Assembly: GCF_044324785.1 (NCBI RefSeq)
Contig: NZ_CP172127.1
DNA from: Escherichia coli
GTDB taxonomy: Bacteria; Pseudomonadota; Gammaproteobacteria; Enterobacterales; Enterobacteriaceae
DNA: 64,000 nt
Strand: one strand, 5' to 3'
This document shows positions 43,721 through 64,000 of the stretch, one piece after another. Made by a program: the position numbers and the translations under genes. The notes below the pieces were generated by a model, which was not told the origin of the DNA, did no database searches, and worked only from the letters and a program-made list of their open reading frames with translations. The stretch's first letter is position 1; each line of letters starts with the position of its first letter.

Positions 43721-43879
43721 GATTCCTCCGGTTCCTTAAAGGCAAATTTAGCGGCTGCTGTTGCTGCATTGATTAAGGGCGGCCGTAGCCGCCCTTAGTG
43801 CTTGATTACAGGACGAAACCTGCAATCTGTCAAGTAAACTCAACAAACTTCGGAATAAAAATCCCGAAGAGTCAGAGAA

Positions 43880-45553
43880 TTACTCGCCTTTAGCTGCTTT
43901 GAAAGCTTCAGCCATTGCGTTGTTGGAGAAGTTTGCATCTTCCTGTTTGTTAACAGTTGCGATTGCATCTTTCTCGTCAGCTTCGTCTTTTGCACGAACA
44001 GACAGGCTGATTGCGCGGTTTTTACGATCAACGCCGGTGAATTTAGCTTCAACTTCGTCGCCAACGCTCAGAACCAGGGTAGCGTCTTCAACGCGGTCAC
44101 GGGATGCTTCAGAAGCACGCAGGTAACCTTCAACGCCGTCAGCCAGTTCTACGGTTGCGCCTTTAGCGTCAACTGCAGTTACTTTACCGGTTACGATAGC
44201 GCCTTTCTTGTTCAGAGCAACCCAGTTGTTGAACGGATCTTCTGCGAGCTGTTTAACGCCCAGGGAGATACGTTCACGTTCTGCGTCAACCTGCAGAACA
44301 ACTGCAGCGATTTCGTCGCCTTTTTTGTATTCACGAACTGCTTCTTCGCCTGCAACGTTCCAGGAGATGTCAGACAGGTGAACCAGGCCGTCGATGCCGC
44401 CGTCAAGGCCGATGAAGATACCGAAGTCAGTGATAGACTTGATTTTACCTTCAACACGGTCACCCTTGTTGTGGGTTTCCGCGAACTGCTGCCACGGGTT
44501 AGCTTTGCACTGTTTCAGACCCAGGGAGATACGACGACGTTCTTCGTCGATATCCAGAACCATAACTTCCACTACATCGCCAACGTTAACAACTTTGGAC
44601 GGGTGGATGTTTTTGTTGGTCCAATCCATTTCGGAAACGTGTACCAGGCCTTCAACGCCTTCTTCGATTTCAACGAAGCAGCCGTAGTCGGTCAGGTTGG
44701 TCACGCGACCAGTCAGTTTGGTACCTTCCGGATAACGTTTAGCGATAGCTACCCACGGATCTTCGCCCAGCTGTTTCAGGCCCAGGGATACACGGGTACG
44801 TTCGCGGTCGAACTTCAGCACTTTAACAGTGATTTCGTCGCCCACGTTGACGATTTCGCTCGGATGCTTAACGCGTTTCCAGGCCATATCAGTGATGTGC
44901 AGCAGGCCGTCAACGCCGCCCAGATCAACGAATGCACCGTAGTCAGTGAGGTTCTTAACGATACCTTTAACTTCCATGCCTTCCTGCAGGTTTTCCAGCA
45001 GCTGATCGCGCTCTGCGCTGTTTTCGGATTCGATAACGGCACGACGAGAAACAACAACGTTGTTGCGCTTCTGATCCAGCTTGATTACTTTGAATTCAAG
45101 CTCTTTGCCTTCCAGGTGCAGAGTGTCACGCACCGGACGAACGTCTACCAGAGAACCTGGCAGGAACGCACGAATACCGTTCAGCTCAACAGTGAAGCCG
45201 CCCTTAACTTTGCCGTTGATAACACCGGTAACAGTTTCAGCATCTTCGTAAGCTTTTTCCAGCGTGATCCAGGCTTCGTGACGTTTAGCTTTCTCACGGG
45301 ACAGCAGAGTTTCACCGAAGCCGTCTTCTACTGCGTCCAGAGCAACGTCAACTTCGTCACCTACCTGGATTTCCAGCTCGCCCTGGGCATTTTTGAACTG
45401 CTCAGCCGGGATGGCGGACTCAGATTTCAGACCAGCGTCAACCAGTACTACGTCTTTGTCGATAGCAACAACAACGCCACGAACGATAGAACCCGGGCGG
45501 GTTTCGATTTCTTTTAAGGACTCTTCAAAGAGTTGAGCAAAAGATTCAGTCAT
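43880..45553 (-). CDS. rpsA: 30S ribosomal protein S1
   Basis: 557 aa with six S1 repeats, beginning [26 protein letters not shown]. Confidence 0.97.
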
Positions 45554-45663
45554 GTTTAATCTTCAGGTTTATATTTAACGTCCACCTGGCTCCATGCCGG
45601 ATGGGGTTGTTTAACATACCCGCTGTCATTCCATTGCAACGGGGGTACTGCAAATTCGGTCGC

Positions 45664-46347
45664 TTATGCGAGAGCCAATTTCTGGCGCGCGTATTGTAGC
45701 GCTTTTTCAATCACTTGCTCAATGCTTAAGGTGGTGGAATCCAACACTAAAGCATCGGCTGCCGGAACCAGTGGCGCTACCGCTCGGTTACGATCGCGGT
45801 CGTCGCGTTCTTTGATCTCGGCCAAAAGGCGCTCAAAGTTAACACTAAAGCCCTTCTCCTGCAACTGTAGCATGCGGCGATGCGCACGTTCTTCCGAGGA
45901 GGCGTCAAGGAAAATTTTCACTGGCGCATCAGGGAATACCACCGTTCCCATATCGCGGCCATCGGCAATCAAGCCTGGTAATTCGCGAAACGCGCGTTGG
46001 CGACGCAATAATGCTTCACGAACGCGTGGGAATGCCGCGACTTGTGAAGCAGCATTCGCCACTTCCTGAGTACGAATTTCGCCGCTGACATCTTCCCCTT
46101 CGAGGATCACTTCCAGATTGCCATTGGTCGACACAAAACGTACATCCAGATGGGATGCCAGCGGCACGAGCGCATCTTCCGATGCAACATCAACATGGTG
46201 ATGTAATGCCGCCAGTGCCAGTACGCGATAAATTGCACCCGAGTCCAGCAGATGCCATTGCAACGCTTCCGCCATAGCCTTACACAAGGTGCCTTTCCCT
46301 GCACCGCTTGGGCCATCAATGGTAATAACCGGGGCAATTGCCGTCAT
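45664..46347 (-). CDS. cmk: cytidylate kinase
   Basis: 227 aa with P-loop (GPSGAGKGT). Confidence 0.95.
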
Positions 46348-46519
46348 CTTTATCTCCTTAAAACAGGCGTACCGTTAACATAACCGCGCGCATTATACGC
46401 GCCGACGCCACAAATCGTTAACGTTGTGTGCAAAAACCAGTTTTGTCTGTATTCAGATGGGGATTTATTGCGCAATTATAGCGGGCTGGCAGAAGACCAG
46501 CCCGAAAGATGACAATGAT

Positions 46520-47284
46520 TTACTTACCAGAGGCGATACGATCACGGATGTGTTGCGCACGCTCTGTTGATGGTGGGTGAGAGTCAAACATGGACTGGGT
46601 ACGACCGCCATCCAGGCTGGCCAATTTTTCAAAGCTGCCAACCAGCCCCTGGGTGCTGATGCCACGTTTCTTCAACAGATCAAAGGAGAAATCATCTGCT
46701 TCGGACTCTTTATCGCGGGAGTATTTAGCATTGATCGCGCCTTCTGCGATATCACCTAATTGTGAGCGAGAAAGCTGGGAAGCCACACCGCTGGTAGCGG
46801 AAATCGCATCACGTGCGGCCACGATCGCATAAGAAGCTTTCATTTCAGCCAGCGAGTGACCCAACGCGACGTGGCCCAGTTCATGACCCAGAACGCCTTC
46901 AATTTCGTTGTCGTTCATCATGTCCATCAGGCCACTGTAGACACGAACACAGCCGTTCGCCATCGCCCATGCGTTGACGTCGCTGGTCATATAAACCTTA
47001 TAGTTGACCGGCGTGCCATTAATATTGTTACCCAATGCTTTGGCGATTTTTGCCAGACGTTTACCGTACTTGCTGGATTTACTTGCGACTTGATTGCCGC
47101 TGTCCATTTCGGCACAGCCCTGATTGGCAATCGCTTTTGCATCAGCATCGCTTAACGTTGCTGCTTTATAGGCATTTAAACCTGAGCTGATAGCCATATT
47201 GGTATCAATACCGTGGGTATTTTGACACCCTGTCAGTAATGCTGCAGAGGCCGCAATCGCCAGCAGTAATTTAGTATTCTTCAT
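46520..47284 (-). CDS. ycaL: M48-family metallopeptidase lipoprotein YcaL
   Basis: About 254 aa with lipoprotein signal (LLTGC) and HELGH zinc motif (GHELGHVALGH); start trimmed to MKNTKLLLAIA at 47284. Confidence 0.85.
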   Translation of the reverse strand: MKNTKLLLAIAASAALLTGCQNTHGIDTNMAISSGLNAYKAATLSDADAKAIANQGCAEMDSGNQVASKSSKYGKRLAKIAKALGNNINGTPVNYKVYMTSDVNAWAMANGCVRVYSGLMDMMNDNEIEGVLGHELGHVALGHSLAEMKASYAIVAARDAISATSGVASQLSRSQLGDIAEGAINAKYSRDKESEADDFSFDLLKKRGISTQGLVGSFEKLASLDGGRTQSMFDSHPPSTERAQHIRDRIASGK

Positions 47285-47452
47285 GTGAATCATCCGTTGA
47301 TTAATCATATATAAATATTATGTATCAATAACTTACATTGACAAACGACGCTACCATTAATCAAAATGACTCACAAGGTCCGAAAAAAAACGCCGGCAAT
47401 GTGCCGACGTTTTGATAAAGAAAGATTTGGCTATTTATTGCACGTTGTTCAT

Positions 47453-48736
47453 TCAGGCTGCCTGGCTAATCCGCGCCAGCTGCTCGAAATAATCCGGAAA
47501 TGTTTTGGCCGTGCATTTGGGATCAAGAATCGTCACTGGTGTATCTGACAACGCCACCAGCGAGAAACACATCGCTATCCGGTGATCATTGTATGTCGCG
47601 ATCTCGGCAAAGTTCAGCTTTTCCGGTGGAGTGATACGAATGTAATCGTGCCCCTCTTCTACTTCCGCACCAACTTTACGCAGTTCTGTTGCCATCGCAA
47701 ACAGGCGATCGGTTTCTTTAACACGCCAGTTATAGATATTGCGCAGCGTGGTGGTGCCTTTTGCAAATAACGCCGCCGTGGCAATGGTCATCGCCGCATC
47801 GGGAATATGGTTCATATCCATATCAATAGCGTTCAGTTCACCACGCGTGCAGGAAATATAATCATCACCCCAGCAAATGGTCGCGCCCATTTTTTCCAGC
47901 ACATCAGCAAAGCGAATATCACCCTGCATACTGTTGCGTCCAATGCCGGTCACTTTTACAGTGCCACCTTTGATTGCTGCTGCTGCCAGGAAGTAAGAAG
48001 CCGAAGATGCATCGCCTTCGACCAAATAAGTACCCGGAGACTGATAAGACTGCCCGCCTTTTACGACAAATTGTTGATAGTGCTGATTTTCAATTTCAAC
48101 ACCAAACGTCTTCATCAGATTGAGTGTGATGTTGATATAAGGTTTAGAAACCAGATCGCCTTTAATACGAATCACCGTATCTTCCGGTGCAAGAGGCGCA
48201 GTCATTAACAGTGCGGTGAGGAACTGGCTGGAAACGGAGCCATCAACGTCAACGTTGCCGCCAGTAAAGCCGCCCTGTAAACGCAATGGCGGATAATTTT
48301 CTTGTTCCAGGTAAGTGATCTTCGCCCCGCCCAGGCGCAGCGCATCCACCAGATGACCAATCGGGCGCTCTTTCATACGCGGCTCACCAGTCAGCACAAT
48401 ATCATTGCTACCCAGACAAAGAGCTGCCGCCAGCGGGCGCATTGCCGTTCCGGCGTTTCCGAGGAACAACTCCAGGGCACCTTCTGCGTGTAATGGACCG
48501 CCGTTACCGATGATTTCGCAACGCGTACGATCGGCTGAAAGCGTATAGCTTACCCCTAACGCTGCTAATGCATTCAGCATATGGCGCACGTCATCGCTAT
48601 CCAGCAGATTGGTTAATACTGTTTTGCCGTGTGCTAATGCCGCCAGCAATAAAGCGCGGTTAGAAACGCTCTTGGAACCGGGCAGATTAATAGTGCCATC
48701 GACACGAGCGATGGGTTGTAACGTCAGGGATTCCAT
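47453..48736 (-). CDS. aroA: 3-phosphoshikimate 1-carboxyvinyltransferase (EPSP synthase)
   Basis: 427 aa beginning [35 protein letters not shown]. Confidence 0.95.
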
Positions 48737-48806
48737 GAACTCAACTCTCTACAACAGAAATAAAAACCCCACAGGCTGGCTGTGGGGATTAAGCAAAATT
48801 TCGGCA

Positions 48807-49895
48807 TTAACCGTGACGGCGTTCGAACTCAACCATGAAGTCTGTCAGCGCTTTAACGCCTTCCAGCGGCATGGCATTATAAATAGACGCGCGCATTCCG
48901 CCGACCACACGGTGACCTTTCAGTGCATGAAGGCCTGCAGCAAAAGACTCTTCAAGGAACAATTTGTCAAGCGCACTGTCCGCCAACTGGAACGGCACGT
49001 TCATCCGCGAACGGTTAGCTTTCGCCACGTCATTGCGGTAGAAATCGCTGTTATCAATCACCCCATACAGCAGTTCTGCTTTTTGCTGATTGATTTTATC
49101 CATTGCAGCTACACCGCCGTTCGCTTTCAGCCATTTAAAGACCAGACCAGACAGATACCAGGCAAATGTCGGCGGCGTGTTAAACATGGAGTCGTTATCG
49201 TTGAGAATGGAATAATCCAGAATCGACGGACACGCGATATTCGCTTTGCCCAGCAAATCTTCACGAACGATGACGATTGTCAGGCCAGCCGGGCCGATAT
49301 TTTTCTGCGCGCCAGCGTAAATTACACCATAACGGCTGACGTCAATCGGACGGGAAAGAATGGTTGAAGAGAAGTCGGCGGCGACCACCACATCTTTGCC
49401 GAAGTCTGGCGTTTCGTCGATAGCGATACCGTCGATGGTTTCATTCGGGCAGTAATGCATATAAGCAGCATTATCAGAGAGTTGCCATTCACGCATTGGT
49501 TTAACCGCGCGCAGACCATCAACAGTCACTTTGGCGTCAAAGACATTAGGCGTGCAGTATTTTTTCGCTTCTTTAATGGCACTTGCCGCCCAGTAACCGG
49601 CATCAACATAATCTGCAGTGGTTTTATCACCGAGAATATTCAGCGGAACAGCAGCAAACTGACCGCGACCGCCGCCATGGCAGAACAATACTTTGTAGTT
49701 GGAGGGGACATTAAGAAGATCGCGAAAATCCTTCTCGGCTTCCTCTGCAACCTGAATGAACTCTTTGCCACGGTGACTCACTTCCATCACCGACGTACCA
49801 AGACCGTTCCAGTCGCGCAGTTCCTGTTGAGCCTGTTTAAGCACCTCTGCCGGTAGCATTGCCGGACCAGAACTAAAATTGAAGATTTGAGCCAT
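48807..49895 (-). CDS. serC: phosphoserine aminotransferase
   Basis: 362 aa beginning [33 protein letters not shown]. Confidence 0.95.
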
Positions 49896-50093
49896 TTCCC
49901 CTCACCACGTTGCGTTGCTATTAACCCGCGGTCAATCGATTGCGACCACAGGTAATACATTATTCCTGTGGCTATCGGTTTTATCATTCAGTGACACACA
50001 TCGCAATGAGTAAAACCGTTGAGGGCAAAAATGTGGCTTGCATCACACAAAAGAATCTCTCGGATTATTAGCAAAAAGCCGATGTTTTTACTG

Positions 50094-50786
50094 TCAGGTC
50101 ACCCGTTTTGCCCGACTTGCCTTCGTCCATTCTGGATTTGCACAGCGCGGACATAATTGTTTTTCCCCCGCGTTCATATGAATGATTTCACTGCAACGAA
50201 TGCAGGCATAGTCCGCCGACTCGGGTACCACTTTGTAACGCTGAGTACAGTCACTGGGTAAAATAAGTAAGCCCGGTTTCACCTTGTCATCTTCAAAGAA
50301 ATAGACACTGATTTGCCCGTTGGTTTCGAGAATCGCCAGACGTACCTGCCCCAACTGCTCTACACCGCGCAATCGTAGCTCCATAAAGAACTCAAATTCC
50401 GTCATGTTGGAGTTATTGAGTTTTGACCAGGCCAGCTCGCCATCTTCAATAATGACAACCGGCTTACCTTCCAGAAGATCTTCCAGTTTTTCACTGTGCG
50501 CCATCAACCACATTACCAGTCGGTATAACAACGCCAGAGTAATAAAGACGATAAGTACCGGGACCATCGGCACATCATCATAAAACGCCACATCTCCCGC
50601 CGCTGATCCCAGCGTCAGAATGATTAACACTTCAAAAAGCGACATCTGCCGCACACCGCGTCTTCCGGTCATTTTGAGGAACAAAAAAACCAGTACAAAG
50701 GTATACAGACTACGTAGTGCCACTTCGCCAAGGAAATCAAAAGGCACTTTATCAAATGCCATACGGTGGAGATCGAACGCCTTCAT
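50094..50786 (-). CDS. ycaP: DUF421-family inner membrane protein YcaP
   Basis: 230-aa ORF with N-terminal TM segments; divergent to ycaO. Confidence 0.8.
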   Translation of the reverse strand: MKAFDLHRMAFDKVPFDFLGEVALRSLYTFVLVFLFLKMTGRRGVRQMSLFEVLIILTLGSAAGDVAFYDDVPMVPVLIVFITLALLYRLVMWLMAHSEKLEDLLEGKPVVIIEDGELAWSKLNNSNMTEFEFFMELRLRGVEQLGQVRLAILETNGQISVYFFEDDKVKPGLLILPSDCTQRYKVVPESADYACIRCSEIIHMNAGEKQLCPRCANPEWTKASRAKRVT

Positions 50787-50915
50787 TTTTATGCTCTTAT
50801 CGTAGTTTATCCACTAAAAGCATAGTCAACAGTTCATCGGCATGGCGGCGGTGATAGCGCCTTTGAGATAAAACCCGTATTATTGCGCGCTTTCCGTACG
50901 ACTAAAGTGATTTTC

Positions 50916-52676
50916 ATGACGCAAACATTTATCCCCGGCAAAGATGCCGCTCTGGAAGATTCCATCGCTCGCTTCCAGCAAAAACTTTCAGACCTCGGTT
51001 TTCAGATTGAAGAGGCCTCCTGGCTGAATCCCGTGCCTAACGTCTGGTCTGTACATATTCGCGACAAAGAGTGCGCACTGTGTTTTACCAACGGTAAAGG
51101 CGCAACCAAGAAAGCGGCGCTGGCTTCTGCACTCGGTGAATATTTCGAGCGTCTCTCAACCAACTACTTTTTTGCTGATTTCTGGCTGGGCGAAACCATC
51201 GCCAACGGTCCATTTGTGCATTATCCCAACGAAAAATGGTTCCCACTGACCGAAAATGACGATGTGCCAGAAGGGCTGCTCGATGACCGTCTGCGCGCAT
51301 TTTACGATCCGGAGAATGAATTGACCGGCAGTATGCTGATTGACCTGCAATCTGGTAACGAAGATCGTGGTATTTGCGGCCTGCCGTTTACGCGTCAGTC
51401 CGACAATCAGATCGTTTATATTCCGATGAATATCATTGGTAACCTGTACGTTTCTAACGGTATGTCCGCTGGCAATACCCGCAACGAAGCACGCGTTCAG
51501 GGGTTGTCCGAAGTTTTCGAACGCTACGTGAAAAACCGCATTATTGCTGAAAGCATCAGCTTGCCGGAAATCCCGGCAGACGTGCTGGCGCGTTACCCAG
51601 CGGTGGTTGAAGCCATCGAAACGCTGGAAGCAGAAGGTTTCCCAATCTTTGCTTATGATGGTTCGCTTGGCGGCCAGTATCCGGTGATTTGCGTGGTACT
51701 GTTCAATCCTGCTAACGGTACCTGCTTTGCCTCTTTCGGTGCGCATCCTGATTTTGGCGTAGCACTGGAACGTACCGTGACCGAGCTGCTGCAAGGTCGT
51801 GGCCTGAAAGATTTGGATGTGTTTACTCCGCCAACCTTCGATGATGAAGAAGTTGCTGAACATACCAACCTCGAAACGCACTTTATCGATTCCAGCGGTT
51901 TAATCTCCTGGGACCTGTTCAAGCAGGATGCCGATTATCCGTTTGTGGACTGGAATTTCTCCGGCACTACGGAAGAAGAGTTTGCTACGCTGATGGCTAT
52001 CTTCAACAAAGAAGATAAAGAAGTTTATATTGCCGATTACGAGCATCTGGGCGTTTATGCTTGCCGTATTATTGTGCCTGGCATGTCCGATATTTATCCG
52101 GCTGAAGATCTGTGGCTGGCGAATAACAGTATGGGCAGCCATTTACGTGAAACGATTCTTTCGTTACCAGGCAGCGAGTGGGAAAAAGAAGATTACCTGA
52201 ACCTTATCGAGCAACTGGATGAAGAAGGTTTTGATGACTTTACTCGCGTGCGTGAGCTGTTGGGTCTGGCGACCGGGTCGGATAACGGTTGGTACACCCT
52301 GCGTATCGGAGAATTAAAAGCCATGCTGGCGCTGGCTGGTGGCGATCTGGAACAGGCTCTGGTCTGGACCGAATGGACGATGGAGTTTAACTCATCAGTA
52401 TTTAGTCCGGAACGCGCCAACTATTATCGCTGCCTGCAAACGTTGTTATTACTGGCGCAGGAAGAAGATCGCCAGCCGCTGCAATATCTGAATGCGTTTG
52501 TTCGCATGTACGGCGCAGATGCCGTGGAAGCCGCCAGTGCGGCAATGAGCGGCGAAGCGGCGTTTTATGGCTTGCAACCAGTAGATAGCGATCTGCACGC
52601 GTTTGCTGCACATCAGTCGTTGTTGAAGGCCTACGAAAAGCTGCAGCGCGCCAAAGCAGCATTCTGGGCAAAATAA
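50916..52676 (+). CDS. ycaO: YcaO-domain protein (ribosomal protein S12 methylthiolation accessory factor)
   Basis: 586 aa from the ATG at 50916 (MTQTFIPGKDAALEDS); YcaO superfamily namesake; ORF-track start over-extended. Confidence 0.9.
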   Translation: MTQTFIPGKDAALEDSIARFQQKLSDLGFQIEEASWLNPVPNVWSVHIRDKECALCFTNGKGATKKAALASALGEYFERLSTNYFFADFWLGETIANGPFVHYPNEKWFPLTENDDVPEGLLDDRLRAFYDPENELTGSMLIDLQSGNEDRGICGLPFTRQSDNQIVYIPMNIIGNLYVSNGMSAGNTRNEARVQGLSEVFERYVKNRIIAESISLPEIPADVLARYPAVVEAIETLEAEGFPIFAYDGSLGGQYPVICVVLFNPANGTCFASFGAHPDFGVALERTVTELLQGRGLKDLDVFTPPTFDDEEVAEHTNLETHFIDSSGLISWDLFKQDADYPFVDWNFSGTTEEEFATLMAIFNKEDKEVYIADYEHLGVYACRIIVPGMSDIYPAEDLWLANNSMGSHLRETILSLPGSEWEKEDYLNLIEQLDEEGFDDFTRVRELLGLATGSDNGWYTLRIGELKAMLALAGGDLEQALVWTEWTMEFNSSVFSPERANYYRCLQTLLLLAQEEDRQPLQYLNAFVRMYGADAVEAASAAMSGEAAFYGLQPVDSDLHAFAAHQSLLKAYEKLQRAKAAFWAK

Positions 52677-53081
52677 AATCAAATAGCCTACGCAATGTAG
52701 GCTTAATGATTCGTCTGAGTTATATTACGGGGCGTTTTTTTAATGCCCCGCTTTACATATATTTGCATTAATAAAATAATTGTAATTATAAAGTTAAATA
52801 TCGGTAATTTGTATTTAATAAATACGATCGATATTGTTACTTTATTCGCCTGGTGCTCCCTTTTAATTAACTGTTTTAGCGGAGGATGCGGAAAAAATTC
52901 AACTCATTTGTTAATTTTTAAAATTTATTTTTATTTGGATAATCAAATATTTACTCCGTATTTGCATAAAAACCATGCGAGTTACGGGCCTATAAGCCAG
53001 GCGAGATATGATCTATATCAATTTCTCATCTATAATGCTTTGTTAGTATCTCGTCGCCGACTTAATAAAGAGAGAGTTAGT
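52677..53081 (+). promoter_or_regulatory. AT-rich focA-pflB regulatory/leader region
   Basis: About 400 bp of very AT-rich DNA upstream of focA; in E. coli this region carries the multiple FNR/ArcA/IHF-controlled pfl promoters; individual sites not mapped here. Confidence 0.5.
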
Positions 53082-53939
53082 GTGAAAGCTGACAACCCTT
53101 TTGATCTTTTACTTCCTGCAGCAATGGCCAAAGTGGCCGAAGAGGCAGGTGTCTATAAAGCAACGAAACATCCGCTTAAGACTTTCTATCTGGCGATTAC
53201 CGCCGGTGTTTTCATCTCAATCGCATTCGTCTTCTATATCACAGCAACCACTGGCACAGGAACAATGCCCTTCGGCATGGCAAAACTGGTTGGCGGCATT
53301 TGCTTCTCTCTGGGGCTGATTCTTTGTGTTGTCTGCGGAGCCGATCTCTTTACTTCCACAGTGTTGATTGTTGTTGCTAAGGCGAGTGGGCGCATCACCT
53401 GGGGTCAGTTGGCGAAAAACTGGCTAAATGTCTATTTTGGCAACCTGGTCGGCGCACTGCTGTTTGTACTTTTAATGTGGCTTTCCGGCGAGTATATGAC
53501 CGCGAATGGTCAATGGGGACTAAACGTTCTACAAACCGCCGACCACAAAGTGCACCATACTTTTATTGAGGCCGTCTGTCTTGGTATCCTGGCAAACCTG
53601 ATGGTATGTCTGGCAGTATGGATGAGTTATTCTGGCCGCAGCCTGATGGATAAAGCGTTCATTATGGTGCTGCCGGTCGCGATGTTTGTTGCCAGCGGTT
53701 TTGAGCACAGTATCGCAAACATGTTTATGATCCCGATGGGTATTGTAATCCGCGACTTCGCATCTCCGGAATTCTGGACCGCTGTCGGTTCTGCACCGGA
53801 AAATTTTTCTCACCTGACCGTGATGAACTTCATCACTGATAACCTGATTCCGGTTACGATCGGTAATATTATCGGCGGTGGTTTGTTGGTTGGGTTGACA
53901 TACTGGGTCATTTACCTGCGTGAAAACGATCACCATTAA
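53082..53939 (+). CDS. focA: formate channel FocA (GTG start)
   Basis: 285 aa from the GTG at 53082 (VKADNPFDLLLPAAMAKV...); the ORF-track 398-aa ORF is an in-frame upstream extension through the AT-rich leader. Confidence 0.9.
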   Translation: MKADNPFDLLLPAAMAKVAEEAGVYKATKHPLKTFYLAITAGVFISIAFVFYITATTGTGTMPFGMAKLVGGICFSLGLILCVVCGADLFTSTVLIVVAKASGRITWGQLAKNWLNVYFGNLVGALLFVLLMWLSGEYMTANGQWGLNVLQTADHKVHHTFIEAVCLGILANLMVCLAVWMSYSGRSLMDKAFIMVLPVAMFVASGFEHSIANMFMIPMGIVIRDFASPEFWTAVGSAPENFSHLTVMNFITDNLIPVTIGNIIGGGLLVGLTYWVIYLRENDHH

Positions 53940-53993
53940 TGGTTGTCGAAGTACGCAGTAAATAAAAAATCCACTTAAGAAGGTAGGTGTTAC

Positions 53994-56276
53994 ATGTCCG
54001 AGCTTAATGAAAAGTTAGCCACAGCCTGGGAAGGTTTTACCAAAGGTGACTGGCAGAATGAAGTAAACGTCCGTGACTTCATTCAGAAAAACTACACTCC
54101 GTACGAGGGTGACGAGTCCTTCCTGGCTGGCGCTACTGAAGCGACCACCACCCTGTGGGACAAAGTAATGGAAGGCGTTAAACTGGAAAACCGCACTCAC
54201 GCGCCAGTTGACTTTGACACCGCTGTTGCTTCCACCATCACCTCTCACGACGCTGGCTACATCAACAAAGCGTTGGAAAAAGTTGTTGGTCTGCAGACTG
54301 AAGCTCCGCTGAAACGTGCTCTTATCCCGTTCGGTGGTATCAAAATGATCGAAGGTTCCTGCAAAGCGTACAACCGCGAACTGGACCCGATGATCAAAAA
54401 AATCTTCACTGAATACCGTAAAACTCACAACCAGGGCGTGTTCGACGTTTACACTCCGGACATCCTGCGTTGCCGTAAATCCGGTGTTCTGACCGGTCTG
54501 CCAGATGCTTATGGCCGTGGTCGTATCATCGGTGACTACCGTCGCGTTGCGCTGTACGGTATCGACTACCTGATGAAAGACAAACTTGCACAGTTCACCT
54601 CTCTGCAGGCTGATCTGGAAAACGGCGTAAACCTGGAACAGACTATCCGTCTGCGCGAAGAAATCGCTGAACAGCACCGCGCTCTGGGTCAGATGAAAGA
54701 AATGGCTGCGAAATACGGCTACGACATCTCTGGTCCGGCTACCAACGCTCAGGAAGCTATCCAGTGGACTTACTTCGGCTACCTGGCTGCTGTTAAGTCT
54801 CAGAACGGTGCTGCAATGTCCTTCGGTCGTACCTCCACCTTCCTGGATGTGTACATCGAACGTGACCTGAAAGCTGGCAAGATCACCGAACAAGAAGCGC
54901 AGGAAATGGTTGACCACCTGGTCATGAAACTGCGTATGGTTCGCTTCCTGCGTACTCCGGAATACGATGAACTGTTCTCTGGCGACCCGATCTGGGCAAC
55001 CGAATCTATCGGTGGTATGGGCCTCGACGGTCGTACCCTGGTTACCAAAAACAGCTTCCGTTTCCTGAACACCCTGTACACCATGGGTCCGTCTCCGGAA
55101 CCGAACATGACCATTCTGTGGTCTGAAAAACTGCCGCTGAACTTCAAGAAATTCGCCGCTAAAGTGTCCATCGACACCTCTTCTCTGCAGTATGAGAACG
55201 ATGACCTGATGCGTCCGGACTTCAACAACGATGACTACGCTATCGCTTGCTGCGTAAGCCCGATGATCGTTGGTAAACAAATGCAGTTCTTCGGTGCGCG
55301 TGCAAACCTGGCGAAAACCATGCTGTACGCAATCAACGGTGGCGTTGACGAAAAACTGAAAATGCAGGTTGGTCCGAAGTCTGAACCGATCAAAGGCGAT
55401 CTCCTGAACTACGATGAAGTGATGGAGCGCATGGATCACTTCATGGACTGGCTGGCTAAACAGTACATCACTGCACTGAACATCATCCACTACATGCACG
55501 ACAAGTACAGCTACGAAGCCTCTCTGATGGCGCTGCACGACCGTGACGTTATCCGCACCATGGCGTGTGGTATCGCTGGTCTGTCCGTTGCTGCTGACTC
55601 CCTGTCTGCAATCAAATATGCGAAAGTTAAACCGATTCGTGACGAAGACGGTCTGGCTATCGACTTCGAAATCGAAGGCGAATACCCGCAGTTTGGTAAC
55701 AACGATCCGCGTGTAGATGACCTGGCTGTTGACCTGGTAGAACGTTTCATGAAGAAAATTCAGAAACTGCACACCTACCGTGACGCAATCCCGACTCAGT
55801 CTGTTCTGACCATCACTTCTAACGTTGTGTATGGTAAGAAAACTGGTAACACCCCAGACGGTCGTCGTGCTGGCGCGCCGTTCGGACCGGGTGCTAACCC
55901 GATGCACGGTCGTGACCAGAAAGGTGCTGTAGCGTCTCTGACTTCCGTTGCTAAACTGCCGTTTGCTTACGCTAAAGATGGTATCTCCTACACCTTCTCT
56001 ATCGTTCCGAACGCACTGGGTAAAGACGACGAAGTTCGTAAGACCAACCTGGCAGGTCTGATGGATGGTTACTTCCACCACGAAGCATCCATCGAAGGTG
56101 GTCAGCACCTGAACGTTAACGTGATGAACCGTGAAATGCTGCTCGACGCGATGGAAAACCCGGAAAAATATCCGCAGCTGACCATCCGTGTATCTGGCTA
56201 CGCAGTACGTTTCAACTCGCTGACTAAAGAACAGCAGCAGGACGTTATTACTCGTACCTTCACTCAATCTATGTAA
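53994..56276 (+). CDS. pflB: pyruvate formate-lyase (formate C-acetyltransferase)
   Basis: 760 aa with C-terminal glycyl-radical motif (RVSGYAVRF). Confidence 0.97.
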
Positions 56277-56317
56277 TTAGATTTGACTGAAATCGTACAG
56301 TAAAAAGCGTACAATAA

Positions 56318-56345
56318 AGGCTCCACGAAAGTGGGGCCTTTTTTA
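56318..56345 (+). terminator. rho-independent terminator downstream of pflB
   Basis: AGGCTCCAC-GAAA-GTGGGGCCT hairpin followed by TTTTTT. Confidence 0.75.
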
Positions 56346-56467
56346 GCACGAGAGCCTTTTTTGTCAGCTATCTATACTTTAATGTGACTGCCAAAACAGA
56401 CTCGACGTAGCCTTCGAGCTGCGCACCAACACGGCCTCAGATGGGCCACATCTGGAGAAACACCGCA

Positions 56468-57208
56468 ATGTCAGTTATTGGTCGCATTCACTCCTTTGAA
56501 TCCTGTGGAACCGTAGACGGCCCGGGTATTCGCTTTATCACCTTTTTCCAGGGCTGCCTGATGCGCTGCCTGTATTGTCATAACCGCGACACCTGGGATA
56601 CGCATGGCGGTAAAGAAGTTACCGTTGAAGATTTAATGAAGGAAGTGGTGACCTATCGCCACTTTATGAACGCTTCCGGCGGCGGCGTTACCGCATCCGG
56701 TGGTGAAGCAATCCTGCAAGCCGAGTTCGTTCGCGACTGGTTCCGCGCCTGCAAAAAAGAAGGCATTCATACCTGTCTGGACACTAACGGTTTTGTTCGT
56801 CGTTACGATCCAGTAATTGATGAACTTCTGGAAGTGACCGACCTGGTAATGCTCGATCTCAAACAGATGAACGACGAAATCCACCAGAATCTGGTAGGCG
56901 TTTCCAACCATCGTACACTCGAGTTTGCTAAATATCTGGCGAACAAAAATGTGAAAGTCTGGATACGTTATGTCGTAGTACCTGGCTGGTCTGACGATGA
57001 CGATTCAGCTCATCGCCTCGGTGAATTTACTCGCGATATGGGTAACGTCGAAAAAATCGAGCTCCTCCCCTACCATGAGTTAGGCAAACATAAGTGGGTG
57101 GCGATGGGCGAAGAGTACAAACTCGACGGTGTGAAACCACCGAAAAAAGAAACCATGGAGCGAGTGAAAGGGATTCTTGAGCAATATGGTCATAAAGTGA
57201 TGTTCTAA
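56468..57208 (+). CDS. pflA: pyruvate formate-lyase activating enzyme (radical SAM)
   Basis: 246 aa from the ATG at 56468 ([23 protein letters not shown]) with the CxxxCxxC radical-SAM cluster motif ([10 protein letters not shown]). Confidence 0.95.
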
Positions 57209-57264
57209 AACATCATGTGCAGGCTGAATTCCGACCTGCCACCCCTTCCTTTAGTAGTAAAAAG

Positions 57265-57300
57265 TAAATCAGCGTTGAGAACATGCTCGACGCTGATTTA
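57265..57300. terminator. hairpin between convergent pflA and the bcsC-like gene
   Basis: Inverted repeat TAAATCAGCG ... CGCTGATTTA around a 16-nt loop; an A-run on the plus-strand 5' side gives a T-run on the minus strand, so it most plausibly terminates the bcsC-like transcript. Confidence 0.4.
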
Positions 57301-57342
57301 CTGGATTTAATTTCCGAGTTTTAACCTTCTGATTCTACCTCA

Positions 57343-60300
57343 TTACCAGTCGGCGTAAGGTATCAGCGGCTGCGGCGGTAAATCCATGTCGCCCTGCCAT
57401 CCGGCGGCGGAATACCGCACGTAGAGCAGGAAATGGCTTGGCGCATAATCTTTCGCCTGCTGGATATCAATCGCCGTGCCGACAAACCAGTTGGACGTGA
57501 CGCGACGCTCAAGTAACGCCCGCGCCGTGTAGCCAAAGCCCTGACTGCTGCCGCCGTCGTTGGTCTGACTGGCGGCATCCTCTTTCCAGTCCGTCGGGAT
57601 CAGGTTCATCAGCGGATAACGCGGCATGGTTTTGGTGCGCGAATGCGACCACGAGCCAGACGCACCCAGCTCCCACGACCAGTTTTCCGTCCGCTCCCGC
57701 CACATCACCGGTATGGCAAACGACAGGTATTCCTGCGGGCTGTAGTAACCGCCCTGACCAAGTGAGTAGCCACTCAGGTCTTTGTCGTAATGCCAGATCA
57801 TATTGTTAAGACCAATGGTCACACGGCGATTATTCTGGTTGATGATCTTATAGTAATAGCCCGTCATCCAGCGCACGCGCCAGTTATCTTCGACATTTTT
57901 ACCGGTTAACTGGTCACCGCTAAGCGATGCCCAGACGCCGTTTGCTTCACCTTTATCGTAGCTCAGGCTTAGCCCCACGCCGTCGGCACGCACGCCGCCC
58001 CATTTTTTCCCGGTATTGCTCGGGGAGTCTTTTTGCCCGCCAAAGGCCAGCAAAGAACTGGAGATGGGCCGACGGTGGGCGTTAACGGTGTAACCCAGCG
58101 GCCCGATATCATCGCTGTAACTGATGCCGCCGACCACATCCACCACGTTGAAGCCCATCGGCGTGGTGCCGATATCCCAGCTCCAGACGTCATTTCGCCA
58201 GCCGACCGCCACGCTGGCACCGGAATCCGACTGGCTGCGGTTGCCGCTACAGTCCTGTAATGTACAGGTGCCCCAGTTGTCATCCCATTTGCCATCGGCA
58301 TTAGTGGAGAAACTGCCGACGTTCATATTGACGAAATCACTGCGAAAGAACATCCGCCCGTCAGAGTACGGCGCATCCACCTGCAACATGGTGGTGTGCG
58401 CTTTCAGATCGGAGTAACCACCGGTGCCGCTCGAACCCCAGTAATCGTGCTCGAGGGTGACGTTAAGATCCTGCTGGCGATAGAGGTCCGCTGCATCGCT
58501 GCGCACGCCGCGTTTCAGCCAGTCATCTTTCTCGTCGTTACGGGTCAGCCGGGTAAAGGTGTCGTTATCCTGCGGACGCGTCGTGGTCACACCGGATGCG
58601 ACCATCGCGTCTTTGTAGGTTTCCAGCGCCTGCGTTGGATCGCCCGCCTGCGCTTCAAACTTCGCACCGTCGCGCAGCACCATCGCGCTTTCCATCGACG
58701 GTGGCTGAGATTTTGCCTGCGGGATCAACTTATTAAACGTCTGCTGCGCCGCTGCGGTATCGCCAAGCTGCGCCTGCGCCAGCGCCACGCGCCGCTGAGT
58801 GTTCAGAGAGGCGTTATCAGTGGCGGGCAGTTTCGCCAGCTGGCTACGTGCCGCCGCTTTGTCACCGGCAGCAATATCCACTTCCGTCAGACCAAGAATG
58901 GCATCGGCGTTAGTTGGCTCCCGCGTCAGGACATTCTGATATGCAGCGCGAGCGGCGGTGTAATCACGTCGTTGTTGCGCCCAGTCAGCCAGCGTGAGGT
59001 CAATACGCGAGGAAGGCGGTTGCTGGCGCAGCATCGCTTCCGCTTCTGCCTCTTTGCCGCTTTCTCGCAGGCGATTAGCGGTTTCCAACACCTGATCGCT
59101 TTGCAGTCGATTAACCAGCTCCTGAATATTGCTGCTCCACTGCGCGCGCGGCAGGCTGTTGATATGCGCCAGCGCCGCTCTGTCCTGGTCATGACCAGAG
59201 AGATACAGCCCGTAAGCGTAAACCTGCTCCGGGTCGTTCGGCTTCTGCTGCGCCAGATTGCGCATTAACGTATCGGCCTGGCTGCGTTGTCCGGCCTGCC
59301 AGAGATCCTGTGAAAGTCGGTAAGTAATCCATACACTGCCGGGGTCCAGCGCCAGTCGCTGGCGCTGAAGTGCTGCTGCCTGCGCCCATTTGCCCTGTTT
59401 TTCCAGCGCTTCGGCCTGCTGTGACAAACGGTCATTTTGCAGGCTGCGTTCGATATCATCAATGCTACGCCGCTGACTGGCAGAGAGCGAGGCGATAAAC
59501 GCTTCAGCCTTTTCTGGCGATTGCTGGCGGTATATATTCGCCAGCCCGCGCACGGCGTTAGTGTTGCCGCTGTCCATACGCAAGGTCTGCTGATAATAAC
59601 GTTCGGCGGCGGGATAATCTTTTCGCGCCATCGCCACATCGCCCAGCCCCAGCACTGCATAGCTGTCGGTGTTATCGACATTACGCGCCTGCTGGAACAG
59701 GCGTTCTGCCCGGTCAGGATTATTGGCTTTCAGCGCAGCATCGCCCTGCTGGATCGCCAGCCAGTAGCGGTTTACTTTCAGGAGACTGTTCCATTTGTCG
59801 TTGTTGCTGCTGTGCGGATCCAGGGCGAGGGCTTTTTCCAGATTCGCCACCGCATTGGCGCGATCGCCTTTCTGAGAATACGCCTGGCCCAGCGCTCCAA
59901 ATATGGCACCAGAGTCAGGATTATCAATATTAAGTATTTTCAACTGACGAATCGCTTCGTTGCGACGGGAGGCAATTTGCGTCATTGCCCCCCAGTATTC
60001 CAGCGCCATTTCGATATCTGGCGGTGCACCGTTAAATAGCTTGTCGTAACTGTCGATAGCCTCTTTATGTCGCCCGGAGATAGCTTGTAAGCGTGCCATT
60101 TGCAGTGCCTGACGCCCCTCAGGCGAAGAAAGTCGCATGGCCGTGCGCGATGCTTTATATATTTTTGAATCAGGAGCGAGCAGGGAAAGTCTGGCAAGTT
60201 GTTTTTGCGCGCCTTCAATATCTCCCTTACGCAGCAGATAGCGAAAACGCGCCGCAACGACATCTGGATTATCAGGTTCCGCCAATTCAAGACGATAAAG

Positions 60301-60450
60301 CGACTGTTCGACCAGATCTTCACGATGAATGTCTTCGCCTAACCGAATCTGCGCCATTAACAGCTTGTGTGCAGTTGGTGTGGCTTTCGCCATCGACATT
60401 ACCGCCAAACCAAGGGATATTGTGAGTAAATTTAGGGTGAATTTGTACAT
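57343..60450 (-). CDS. bcsC: BcsC-like outer membrane polysaccharide export protein (TPR repeats plus C-terminal beta-barrel), 1035 aa
   Basis: Signal peptide; long TPR-rich N-terminal region (repeated A/L/Q/R-rich about 34-aa units); aromatic-rich C-terminal beta-barrel ending PLIPYADW; directly downstream of a BcsB-like gene. Call based on architecture and recalled similarity, not a database search. Confidence 0.75.
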   Translation of the reverse strand: MYKFTLNLLTISLGLAVMSMAKATPTAHKLLMAQIRLGEDIHREDLVEQSLYRLELAEPDNPDVVAARFRYLLRKGDIEGAQKQLARLSLLAPDSKIYKASRTAMRLSSPEGRQALQMARLQAISGRHKEAIDSYDKLFNGAPPDIEMALEYWGAMTQIASRRNEAIRQLKILNIDNPDSGAIFGALGQAYSQKGDRANAVANLEKALALDPHSSNNDKWNSLLKVNRYWLAIQQGDAALKANNPDRAERLFQQARNVDNTDSYAVLGLGDVAMARKDYPAAERYYQQTLRMDSGNTNAVRGLANIYRQQSPEKAEAFIASLSASQRRSIDDIERSLQNDRLSQQAEALEKQGKWAQAAALQRQRLALDPGSVWITYRLSQDLWQAGQRSQADTLMRNLAQQKPNDPEQVYAYGLYLSGHDQDRAALAHINSLPRAQWSSNIQELVNRLQSDQVLETANRLRESGKEAEAEAMLRQQPPSSRIDLTLADWAQQRRDYTAARAAYQNVLTREPTNADAILGLTEVDIAAGDKAAARSQLAKLPATDNASLNTQRRVALAQAQLGDTAAAQQTFNKLIPQAKSQPPSMESAMVLRDGAKFEAQAGDPTQALETYKDAMVASGVTTTRPQDNDTFTRLTRNDEKDDWLKRGVRSDAADLYRQQDLNVTLEHDYWGSSGTGGYSDLKAHTTMLQVDAPYSDGRMFFRSDFVNMNVGSFSTNADGKWDDNWGTCTLQDCSGNRSQSDSGASVAVGWRNDVWSWDIGTTPMGFNVVDVVGGISYSDDIGPLGYTVNAHRRPISSSLLAFGGQKDSPSNTGKKWGGVRADGVGLSLSYDKGEANGVWASLSGDQLTGKNVEDNWRVRWMTGYYYKIINQNNRRVTIGLNNMIWHYDKDLSGYSLGQGGYYSPQEYLSFAIPVMWRERTENWSWELGASGSWSHSRTKTMPRYPLMNLIPTDWKEDAASQTNDGGSSQGFGYTARALLERRVTSNWFVGTAIDIQQAKDYAPSHFLLYVRYSAAGWQGDMDLPPQPLIPYADW

Positions 60451-60562
60451 GCCTGCCTCAATCAGGTGTTAACTCACTTTTTATTAAAAACAGAACGGGC
60501 GCAGCTCCCTGCCTGTATAAAGTCAGGACAGAATGGAGCCGCAAAATAGAAATGATGATGAA

Positions 60563-61166
60563 TTACTGTTGATGAGGGTTCAGACGACGGCGACTAATGT
60601 TACGTAACAGACTCCATACTACCCACGCCAATAGCACCACACTGAGAGTTGCCAGCACTGCCAGTAGAATGGGATGTCTGGCTAACACATATTGCACTCG
60701 TTCAATCCAGGGGAGATGCCCAACGTAATAAGTATCTCCAACTCGTAAACTATTGATGCCAGATTCACGAATAACCGCGACTGAACCAAAAATATTGCCG
60801 CGTTTTGTACTATTAATTAACGCATTGTTGAGTAGCGTATCTCCGCGTGATCCCTCGGACATTAAAGCAATTACGCTGCGTTGGGTATGATATGGAGACT
60901 GAAAACCAACTATCGCCGCCATTGGCAATGGAGAATTTATAGTTGTTTGTATTTCAGGTTTTTGATCGTCGTTATCTGTCATAATTTTGGCGTAATCAGA
61001 GTGTCGTATTGGGCTTTTTACCCAACTTGTTGTTGCCTCAATGAGCAGATTAATTTGCTGATTGTCTGCAAATTCTTGCGGAAGTCTTCCTATTAACAGG
61101 ATATCTGAATCCTTGCCCTGGACAGAACCTATATCATCAGTAATTGTCAGATTAATTGCCGGAGAT
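60563..61166 (-). pseudogene. bcsB: 3' portion of BcsB-like gene (cellulose synthase periplasmic subunit) separated from its 5' portion by IS2
   Basis: Reading frame is open from the IS2 boundary (61166) through the ORF-track ORF 60563..60982 and ends in a C-terminal TM anchor (HPILLAVLATLSVVLLAWVVWSLL); frame is continuous with the 5' part once IS2 plus one TSD copy are removed. Confidence 0.7.
61162..61166. repeat. IS2 target-site duplication GAGAT (copy 1)
   Basis: GAGAT immediately flanks both IS2 termini. Confidence 0.9.
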
Positions 61167-61177
61167 TGGATTTGCCC

Positions 61178-62083
61178 CTATATTTCCAGACACCTGTTAT
61201 CACTTAACCCATTACTGGCCTGCTGCCGCAGATATTCCCGTGGCGAGCGATAACCCAGTGCACTATGCGGATGCCATTCGTTATAATGCTCGAACGCCTC
61301 TGCAAGGTTCTTTGCTGCCGTTAACCCGTCTGGTTTAGGCATGATACTGATGTAGTCACGCTTTATCGTTTTCACGAAGCTCTCTGCTATGCCGTTACTC
61401 TCCGGACTCCGCACCGCCGTGTTCTTCGGTTCAAGCCCCAACATCCGGGCAAACTGCCGTGTTTCATTAGCCCGGTAGCATGAACCATTATCCGTCAGCC
61501 ACTCTACTGGAGACGCCGGAAGCTCGTTGCCGAAGCGGCGTTCCACCGCTCCCAGCATTACGTCCTGTACTGTTTCACTGTCGAAGCCGCCCGTAGTGAC
61601 TGCCCAGTGCAGTGCCTCACGGTCACAGCAGTCCAGCGCGAACGTGACTCGCAGTTTTTCTCCGTTATCACAGCGGAACTCGAACCCGTCAGAGCACCAT
61701 CGTTGATTGCTTTCTTTCACGGCCACTTTGCCAGTATGTGCCCGTTTCGATGGCGGTACAGCGGTTTTTCGCTCAAGCAACAGCGCATTCTGGCGCATGA
61801 TCCGGTAAACACGTTTGGCATTGATCGCAGGCATACCATCAAGTTCGGCCTGTCTGCGAAGCAGCGCCCATACCCGACGATAACCATACGTGGGCAGCTC
61901 TCCGATAACATGGTGTATACGGAGAAGCACATCCGTATCATCTGAGTGACGGCTGCGGCGACCATCTTTCCAGTCATCGGTTCGTCTGAGAATTACGTGC
62001 AACTGCGCACGCGACACCCGGAGACAACGGCTGACTAAGCTTACTCCCCATCCCCGGGCAATAAGGGCGCGTGCGCTATCCAC
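61178..62083 (-). CDS. insD: IS2 transposase OrfB (InsD), DDE integrase domain
   Basis: 301-aa ORF beginning [29 protein letters not shown], with rve-type catalytic region; overlaps insC in the -1 frame as expected for IS3-family frameshifting. Confidence 0.9.
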
Positions 62084-62406
62084 TTTTTTGCACGCCCGTA
62101 TTCAACGGCTTCTTTAAGGAGTTCATTTTCCATCGTTTTTTTGCCGAGCAGGCGCTGGAGTTCTTTAATCTGCTTCATGGCAGCAGCAAGTTCAGAGGCA
62201 GGAACGACCTGCTCTCCTGCGGCCACAGCAGTAAGACTTCCCTCCTGGTATTGCTTGCGCCAGAGAAATAACTGGCTGGCTGCCACACCGTGTTGCCGGG
62301 CAACAAGGGAGACCGTCATTCCCGGTTCAAAACTCTGCTGAACAATAGCGATCTTTTCCTGTGTAGTACGCCGTCTGCGTTTCTCCGGTCCTAAGACATC
62401 AATCAT
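62041..62406 (-). CDS. insC: IS2 OrfA (InsC), helix-turn-helix regulator
   Basis: 121 aa from the ATG at 62406 ([41 protein letters not shown]...); ORF-track start over-extended. Confidence 0.9.
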
Positions 62407-62497
62407 CTGCTCTCCAATGACTAGTCTAAAAACTAGTATTAAGACTATCACTTATTTAAGTGATATTGGTTGTCTGGAGATTCAGGGGGCCAGTCTA

Positions 62498-62502
62498 GAG
62501 AT
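62498..62502. repeat. IS2 target-site duplication GAGAT (copy 2)
   Basis: GAGAT immediately flanks both IS2 termini. Confidence 0.9.
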
Positions 62503-64000
62503 CCAGTTTGAGCACCAATCAGTCCAAGGGTATTTAATAATGTTTCAACTTGCGTTGTGCCAGGATTTTCAGGCATAACCACAACCGTTTCTGATAGATC
62601 GGCCATGCGGCTAAATGGAAAGCCTGAGCTGGCAAAAGCGCGTAAATCTGGCATTGCGATAAAGTGATGGTACTTTGAAAAATCGATAGTGGAATCATCT
62701 GCAATAACCGCATGATTTTTTAGCGACCGGGAAATAATACAGCTATCGGCATCAGAGCGCGGCATTGTATTAACGTACTCAAAATTAAATCGCAATTGAT
62801 TAAGCGCCCCTAACGTCAGCGCAGGAATGTTAATTTCATTATTACCATCCAACAATTCTTGCAATAACGGTAAACGTAACAATAACCTATCAGTAGCAGA
62901 TTGCGGACTCAGCCGGAAAGATTCAAGGTACTGGTTATTAAGGCTGACATCCATGCGTGAACCACCTATCGTTGGCGTGGTATAACGATAGTTAATCTTC
63001 ATCTCACCCCCACGATTACGCAATAGAAAGAGATCAGGTGGCAAATTAAATGAAACATTAATTGCCGCAGACTCCAGGGCACTTGCCTGTAACTGCCCTT
63101 CATAATTTTTAAGCTCTGCGAAAGTTACAGGACGATCAGTGCGTATCCAGTTTGGCGCATCATAAGGTTTACGCGGCAGTAACGGCTTCACGTCATTTAC
63201 GACCACGCTATCGCCGCGAAATAATATATTTCCCTGTGCAAGGCCTTTTGCCGCCTGTAATAAATCTTTATCATCGCGGCCCAAAAGTACCAGCAATTTG
63301 ACAAAGGGATTTTGTGGATGACTGATCATTTTAATAACAGGCGCATTCACCAACGGATGCTCGCGCAGAAAGTCTGGGCGTCTATTGTTCGTGGCAAAGA
63401 CTACTGCATTACTTTCCGGTAACTGGTTATAGAAAACCGGAAATCGGTGACCACGCCAGCCAGATTGCGAACCAAACCACGAAGCGACAATAGCTGATAC
63501 CTGCTGCAAACCAGTCCCAGGAGTACCGGCAAAAACCATCGGCAATGTATTAGGGCGGTTATCTCGCGGATCAAAGAACGGTACAGGAAGATATGAAAGA
63601 TCATTTTTCAAATTGAGTCTCTGAACTACCAGTTCAAGTTCACTGGTACGTCCAATATCAAGCCACAAATTGCCGCTGGTCGGGTTTTCGCAGGCGCTCT
63701 GGTAGTGACTAATTAATTCTAGGCGCAAGCGATTAAAATCCGAAAAATACAATGGGTTAAGAGTTATTTCCGCCAGCGTTTTCTTCCCCAGTTGTTCTTT
63801 GGTAATCGGCAATACCTCCATCAACTCGTCATTAAGATAGACCTTAAGCTGTGACTGGACCGGGATCAGCGACGGTGATGGAGTGTATTCAAGTTTTAGT
63901 TTCGCTTCTGACACTATTTCATCGCTACGCATACCAAACTCAATTTGCCCCTGTGGGTTAACTCCATTCAGGACTATGTTTCCTGGCGCTGGTGCGATTT
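62498..64000 (-). pseudogene. bcsB: 5' portion of BcsB-like gene interrupted by IS2 (runs off the window end)
   Basis: Open minus-strand frame from the window edge to the IS2 boundary; ORF-track protein 62448..63932 (494 aa) is BcsB-like, with its last 16 codons read from IS2 sequence before a stop. Confidence 0.7.

Follow-up and report, generated by a model that had tools for sequence, protein, structure and literature searches.

We describe here the last part of a 64,000-nt stretch of the Escherichia coli contig NZ_CP172127.1 (assembly GCF_044324785.1; the whole stretch is called the window below), where genes resembling those for cellulose secretion (bcs) abut pflA. This locus is very likely a rare accessory cellulose-synthesis island with a bcsB gene broken by the insertion sequence IS2 and a hybrid bcsC gene that has been overwritten by core-type bcsC. 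An earlier note on this DNA had offered three alternatives, namely, a genuine rearrangement, a relocated or paralogous polysaccharide-export module, or an assembly chimera. Only the paralogous module held up; neither the IS2 nor the hybrid state of bcsC figured in that note.

The break in gene order relative to E. coli K-12 that the note reported past pflA is real, with ycaK, ycaN, and ycaM standing there in K-12 and the K-12 bcs operon lying as far as ∼2.7 Mb from pflA. The convergent BcsC-like gene does begin 134 bp past the pflA stop, the gap being exactly 57209–57342: 57208 is the last base of the pflA stop, and a 1035-aa open reading frame (ORF) on the minus strand terminates with the codon at 57343–57345. 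This ORF (57343–60450, minus strand) is intact and is indeed BcsC, scoring 1899.7 bits against the NCBIfam equivalog model NF008520 (cut-off 858). The BcsB-like gene comes next, upstream of bcsC on the minus strand; its intact homologue in strain N3 reaches 1168 bits with NF008325 (cut-off 922) over 766/766 positions, and in the window, the gene is there but interrupted by IS2. Of the island, the window takes in no more than the end next to pflA, with bcsC and most of bcsB. It differs from N3 by one mismatch in 57209–61166 (3957 of 3958 positions agree) and by two in 62498–64000.

The remainder of the island is visible in complete genomes. In the RefSeq annotation of strains N3, E7-1N7, and 06-00048, the order from pflA is bcsC (1035 aa), bcsB (766 aa), bcsA (704–706 aa), a GGDEF gene (446 aa), and an EAL gene (782 aa), followed by a spacer of ∼1.1 kb that is rich in AT and then by ycaM, ycaD, ycaC, and dmsC; none of bcsZ, bcsQ, bcsR, bcsE, bcsF, and bcsG is present in the island. 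With its 12.7 kb, on the minus strand and running toward pflA, the island stands in for the 1.68-kb ycaK–ycaN segment. Alignment of these three genomes and of the divergent strain E69 with K-12 placed the end of K-12 homology at or within 1 bp of the pflA stop and its return at the stop of ycaM; the two flanking genes are convergent. No integrase or other mobility gene is annotated within the island.

A megablast search recovered the pflA–bcsC junction from nine of 5426 complete E. coli genomes (0.17%), so that the adjacency occurs in other assemblies without being the normal arrangement of the species. Junction identity to the window was 99.5% in N3, 98.6% in 06-00048, and ∼90% in the seven others. 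E69 carries the same island sequence at the same site, with flanks 88%–95% identical to K-12.

The bcs-like proteins are diverged paralogs and not the canonical ones. Island BcsA is 52.9% identical to K-12 BcsA over 690 aligned residues (∼42% over all 872 residues of BcsA1) and does not have the ∼150-aa N-terminal extension of the core protein; BcsB is 64.5% identical to its K-12 counterpart. A 112-bp spacer links bcsB directly to bcsC where the core locus has bcsZ. N3, moreover, retains a complete and intact core bcsRQABZC-bcsEFG at the normal site between dppF/yhjV and hmsP/dctA. The N3 copy of island BcsA scores 1014 bits with NF008558 (cut-off 992), and its motifs DDG, DCD, TED, QRIRW, RFSPR, and DFSEGG, which belong to the GT2 catalytic domain and the C-terminal PilZ domain, are all intact. 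Over their full length, the GGDEF protein shares 42% identity with K-12 DgcI/YliF and the EAL protein 39% with K-12 PdeI/YliE, and the two genes stand in the same order as in K-12; the GGDEF homologue of Escherichia marmotae combines a GAPES2 sensor with a GGDEF domain (Pfam). Compared with the core class IIa locus (K-12 b3530–b3538), the island thus has homologous BcsA, BcsB, and BcsC, a PilZ-gated BcsA, and ∼2.55 kb at the 3′ end of bcsC that are 95%–97% identical. It differs in its chromosomal site, in the length of BcsA (706 vs. 872 aa) and BcsC (1035 vs. 1157 aa), in being without bcsZ, bcsQ, bcsR, and bcsEFG, in having a cyclase and phosphodiesterase pair of its own, and in a guanine–cytosine (GC) content of only 0.33–0.44 outside the converted segment.

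We aligned four island alleles of bcsC with core bcsC by codon. None of the island alleles has an equivalent of core codons 177–298 (a 122-codon gap). Upstream of a breakpoint at nt ∼555, they are 67%–70% identical to core at the nucleotide level; downstream, identity rises to 95%–97% in the window and N3, ∼94.5% in 06-00048, ∼92% in E69, and ∼88% in the E7 type. Likeness to core bcsC sets in precisely with the stop codon and runs as far as window positions 59895–59898, and the GC content of the gene steps from 0.48 to 0.59 together with the jump in identity. Neither mosaicism nor a comparable discontinuity was seen in bcsB or bcsA.

The core-like part is itself a patchwork. In the window allele, no site over stretches of 1048 and 386 nt departs from all three core-type sequences compared, and the 06-00048 allele is core-identical in other blocks. 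Near the breakpoint and again toward the 3′ end, the N3-type, 06-00048, and E69 alleles have island-specific patches in common. Scored at 167 sites at which the core panel is invariant and E69 deviates from it, the window allele falls into only 15 runs of core or island state, whereas 20,000 shuffles averaged 71 runs and never gave fewer than 48. The corresponding figures for 06-00048 are 11 runs and a shuffle mean of 52. E69 compared with the E7 type gave 86 runs against 103 expected, with E7-type differences from core spread fairly evenly. Because the core-identical blocks differ between island variants, repeated gene conversion from core to island is indicated. We infer that Escherichia core bcsC long ago took the place of most of the native gene and that repeated non-crossover conversion from core-type bcsC followed in E. 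coli hosts. The two bcsC copies of N3 lie in opposite orientation ∼2.8 Mb apart, so that recombination between them by crossover would leave a large part of the chromosome inverted, which may explain why exchanges are of the conversion type only.

Had a foreign bcsC 5′ end been fused just once, long ago, to a core 3′ part, with nothing but ordinary divergence since, all island variants would have the same 122-codon gap and breakpoint, as they do; such a history would also suit the fairly even E7-type differences and the E69–E7 run count. We nevertheless regard it as unlikely. The window copy and 06-00048 are core-identical in long and different blocks, their 15 and 11 runs fall far short of the shuffle means, and one fusion cannot give variant-specific blocks atop shared unconverted patches.

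Less probable still, and in our view highly unlikely, is that the patchy core identity is a polishing or consensus artefact, produced without any gene conversion when core reads were mis-mapped to the island copy. The bcsC copies are similar enough for cross-mapping, and draft assemblies do collapse at that point. Such an artefact would match the core gene of the same genome; in N3, the island bcsC segment differs from the strain's own core at 95 of 2580 sites and lies nearer to the core of another strain (81 sites). The window and N3, as two records, are moreover almost the same in sequence, and the unconverted patches recur unchanged in three variants, each with an intact ORF.

The two remaining explanations can be all but set aside. 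An assembly chimera, in which the pflA region was joined to the core bcs locus through a mis-resolved repeat, could draw on the ∼2.5-kb stretch of bcsC that is 95%–97% identical to core and on the short-read assemblies that do break in bcsC (four E. marmotae contigs, and N-terminal BcsC matches at contig ends), but it is effectively refuted, with a negligible probability, by the presence of the junction in nine complete genomes and E69 with the island contiguous to ycaM–ycaD–dmsC, by the end of core likeness at the bcsC stop and the divergent bcsB, not bcsZ, that comes upstream of bcsC, and by the agreement of the window with N3. Equally improbable is a transfer of the canonical operon to the pflA site by chromosomal rearrangement, for which the core-like 3′ two-thirds of bcsC might speak and which is contradicted by the low identity of BcsA (53%) and BcsB, the shortened BcsA N terminus, the missing bcsZ, bcsQ, bcsR, and bcsEFG, and the intact core locus in N3, a strain with the same island. 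For annotation, this means that the locus is real and rare, and should be neither flagged as a misassembly nor merged with the core bcs genes.

Several points weigh against an accessory island with a repeatedly converted bcsC. N3's own core bcsC was tried as the conversion donor and rejected, with 95 mismatches against 81 for another strain's core; the island gene being nearer to the latter, the donor was not the copy now resident, and the conversions may have preceded arrival in this background. An unconverted native accessory bcsC was found nowhere in searches of BcsC protein clusters and with the BcsC N terminus, and the 122-codon gap either was there in the accessory gene from the outset or came about with the fusion. 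With bcsA and the GGDEF and EAL genes falling outside the window, their presence in the source strain is suggested by near-identity to N3 (one mismatch in 3958 bp). Two further points concern the preprint that describes accessory clusters of this kind (bioRxiv 10.1101/2025.05.09.653004): its functional test covered a type-4 plasmid operon only, and its BcsA3 references WP_000576412.1 and WP_309491259.1 were not among the 15 members listed per protein cluster.

A mosaic, repeatedly converted bcsC is the one feature of the locus that appears undescribed. A literature search on bcsC gene conversion returned nothing relevant, and takeover by a core-type exporter is not reported in the searchable text of the literature describing these accessory clusters. 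The conversion is either selected or merely driven by homology. One tentative idea, which we think more doubtful than not by a wide measure, is that accessory synthases are kept without an exporter of their own, and that a core-type BcsC is maintained as BcsA–BcsB need a host-matched exporter, amounting to concerted evolution across two synthase systems. In either case, the mosaic illustrates cleanly how sequence passes between a core gene and its accessory paralogue; should it be under selection, it would tell something about which Bcs parts are interchangeable.

An abundant E. coli BcsC class of 1027 aa (60% identity and 100% coverage) was considered as the native accessory BcsC and discarded, since its alignment is that of core BcsC with an in-frame deletion of residues 547–677. 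This form occurs on at least 1000 contigs. Core E. coli BcsC in public data has many such in-frame deletions in the tetratricopeptide repeat (TPR) region, with lengths of 948–1066 aa and ∼100% identity to K-12 elsewhere (P0158, P0123, P0139, P0145, P0189, P0195, P0198, P0199, P0201, and P0146). They could be products of real recombination between TPR repeats or of assembly collapse.

The second peculiarity of the window copy is its IS2. The element entered bcsB after about codon 567 of 766. The upstream fragment of the gene runs into IS2 and stops after 16 foreign codons, and the last ∼200 residues of BcsB, membrane anchor included, are left on a separate fragment (60563–61166). In itself the element is nothing unusual for IS2 of the IS3 family, with its 1331 bp, a 5-bp target duplication, overlapping tnpA and tnpB, and imperfect terminal inverted repeats; only the insertion site is out of the ordinary, the bcsB–IS2 junction being present in none of the 5426 complete genomes, an absence that points to a recent and strain-specific event. 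BcsA activity needs the membrane-anchored C-terminal part of BcsB. Since the insertion removes that anchor and parts bcsC from the operon promoter, the accessory cellulose operon is probably inactive in the source strain. The 5′ part of bcsB differs from N3 only at 63282 and 63499, and each of the two changes is nonsynonymous (A to V; F to L). They fit relaxed constraint after the insertion, and are far too few sites to interpret.

How an intact island would work can be proposed from established Bcs systems. The island cyclase and phosphodiesterase would set the local level of cyclic di-GMP, which would bind to the short BcsA at its PilZ domain. BcsA and the membrane-anchored BcsB would then jointly polymerize β-1,4-glucan and move it across the inner membrane, and BcsC, with its TPR domain and barrel, would export it across the outer membrane. 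As the island has no BcsG or BcsZ, its cellulose would be left unmodified except where core proteins acted in trans. Product and regulation of the system, like its loss of function in the source strain, are thus predicted by analogy.

Coordinates of all features discussed are collected in Table 1.

Table 1. Features at the pflA-proximal end of the island (window coordinates)
Feature	Position	Strand	Description
pflA	56468..57208	+	Last gene in common with K-12; K-12 homology ends exactly at its stop codon
Spacer between convergent pflA and bcsC	57209..57342	.	134 bp, island-specific, without K-12 counterpart
Accessory bcsC	57343..60450	-	Intact 1035-aa ORF; TPR domain and outer-membrane barrel exporter; hybrid gene
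Core-derived 3′ bcsC segment	57343..59895	-	∼2.55 kb, 95%–97% identical to E. coli core bcsC, GC 0.55–0.61
Island-specific patch near bcsC 3′ end	57391..57691	-	Differences common to N3, 06-00048, and E69 variants; not overwritten
Large block of core-state sites	57877..59332	-	Alignment nt 1485–2940; one island-state site inside
Second block of core-state sites	59431..59887	-	Alignment nt 930–1386
Divergent native 5′ bcsC segment	59896..60450	-	∼70% nt identical to core; 99%–99.6% among N3, 06-00048, and E69; GC ∼0.48
bcsB 3′ fragment	60563..61166	-	About codons 567–766 with C-terminal membrane anchor; cut from start by IS2
GAGAT target-site duplication, copy 1	61162..61166	.	Direct repeat
IS2	61167..62497	-	1331-bp insertion relative to N3
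IS2 terminal inverted repeats	61175-61207 and 62456-62488		Imperfect; 33 nt, 79% complementary
IS2 tnpB	61178-62083	-	IS2-specific model NF006918, 706.5 bits (cut-off 597), full length
IS2 tnpA	62041-62406	-	IS2-specific model NF006928, 276 bits (cut-off 229), full length
GAGAT target-site duplication, copy 2	62498..62502	.	Direct repeat
bcsB 5′ part	62498..64000	-	Open to window edge; start codon expected ∼199 nt past window end

Accessory cellulose clusters in E. coli were recently described in a 2025 preprint from the Römling laboratory, under the names BcsA2, BcsA3, and BcsA4 (Hosseinpourlamardi et al. 2025; bioRxiv 10.1101/2025.05.09.653004). In that account, BcsA2 is mostly plasmid-borne and sister to BcsA3, and BcsA3 is a chromosomal bcsABC also found in E. 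marmotae; the accessory BcsA proteins are short and ∼41%–43% identical to BcsA1, have a YliF-like GGDEF and a YliE-like EAL protein encoded adjacent to them, and are confined to Escherichia. We file the island as BcsA3 type, by description only. It shares with that type a bcsABC-only composition, a chromosomal position away from the core locus, a BcsA without the ∼150-aa N terminus and ∼42% identical to BcsA1, a YliF-like GGDEF and a YliE-like EAL gene directly alongside, and an occurrence limited to Escherichia, E. marmotae included. Type 3 is favored over type 2 by the chromosomal and E. marmotae association and by an identity of 73% to the plasmid type. Unlike the preprint's clusters, in which BcsC groups concordantly with BcsA, the window has a hybrid bcsC that is core-type over its 3′ ∼2.55 kb, and its copy is interrupted by IS2. 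In the preprint, as far as its text and tables can be searched, there is no mention of pflA, ycaM, strains such as N3, or bcsC recombination. The element thus belongs to a recently described class, and the general picture of cellulose secretion is unchanged; bcsB::IS2 is a further clear instance of an accessory cellulose system in decay, in line with the preprint's position that having a second operon is not stably favored in E. coli (bioRxiv 10.1101/2025.05.09.653004).

Among 5.8 billion protein clusters, three were close to island BcsA: E. coli (E7 type), E. marmotae (88%–90%), and the plasmid type (73%). At 73% identity or above, clusters come only from E. coli, E. marmotae, and Escherichia ruysiae, and the next ones, at 56% or below, are core BcsA of other genera. 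The plasmid-borne accessory bcsAB clusters of pLR-29-1_1 and S56 plasmid A resemble the island in having a short divergent BcsA (73% to the island's) and BcsB together with a core-type bcsC, and S56 plasmid A has GGDEF and EAL genes nearby. They differ in that their bcsC is a complete 3474-bp core gene (98.5% to K-12) with 121 bp of bcsZ tail, whereas the island keeps its own bcsC 5′ end, and in a group II intron (ltrA) between bcsB and bcsC (L007 9988–20909 and L008 5991–16913). The plasmid bcsA and bcsB genes are ∼70% identical at the nucleotide level to both island and core. A core bcsC with a bcsZ tail points to capture of chromosomal bcsC by the plasmid cluster. Both accessory types would then have ended with a core-type exporter, by different routes.

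The island also extends to E. marmotae, in which it appears common. Traced from the ycaD side, the E. marmotae version is 82%–85% identical to the E. coli versions, with flanks ∼87% identical to E. coli. A scan of species-representative genomes with BcsA had given E69 only, probably because exact peptide patterns miss relatives of ∼90% identity such as E. marmotae. The lineages of the island are about as divergent from one another as Escherichia species are, which suggests long residence at the pflA site in the genus, sporadic in E. coli, rather than a recent arrival from outside. Searches with the 181-aa divergent BcsC N terminus and with BcsA found no donor outside Escherichia, and nothing closer than Enterobacteriaceae core proteins.

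In E. marmotae, the far boundary differs from that in E. coli: the island also takes out most of ycaM, of which the first ∼80 nt are left (L010 4882–6442 compared with L001 29487–30952). All four E. marmotae contigs (L010–L013) end 579–772 nt into bcsC, which starts at 14601 (13980 in L013), and the best matches to the island BcsC N terminus are likewise contig-end fragments. These contig ends lie where a short-read assembler would stop if the rest of the gene repeated the resident core copy. Since ∼2.5 kb of island bcsC is near-identical to core bcsC, short-read assemblies break within the gene, and the island is probably under-counted in draft genomes. Calls of bcsC in such genomes are open to confusion.

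The GC content climbs along the island toward pflA (L001 16810–29521), from 0.32 in the upstream spacer through 0.33 (EAL), 0.34 (GGDEF), 0.375 (bcsA), 0.44 (bcsB), and 0.48 (bcsC 5′) to 0.59 (bcsC 3′); only the last step is explained, by the core-derived sequence. The spacer itself, a 1.1-kb AT-rich stretch (L001 28423–29521) that has no annotated gene, lies upstream of the EAL gene, and adjoins ycaM, presumably holds the operon promoter and regulatory region. An Rfam scan of the N3 upstream region, this stretch included, gave no match, and neither did a scan of window positions 56400–64000.

At the other end, the spacer between pflA and bcsC contains a terminator-like hairpin (57263–57302) with a 17-bp stem and a T-rich tail on the plus strand; read on the minus strand, one of its G–T pairs turns into a mismatch. 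Hairpin and tail being island-specific, the likely pflA terminator would be supplied by the island and not by K-12-type sequence. The start of pflA was taken as 56468, following the RefSeq annotation of the matching N3 locus; the ORF list extends the gene to an ATG further upstream, at 56441.

Finally, we compared the remainder of the window with N3. An IS4 between ycaL and aroA in N3 is absent from the window (47394–47406). The two are identical over 41839–47406 and differ at 83 sites in 48298–56893, 23 of these in 48394–48893, which looks like a recombination patch in an otherwise near-identical background. A recombination endpoint exactly at the island edge was considered and rejected: the differences end ∼315 bp before it, within pflA.

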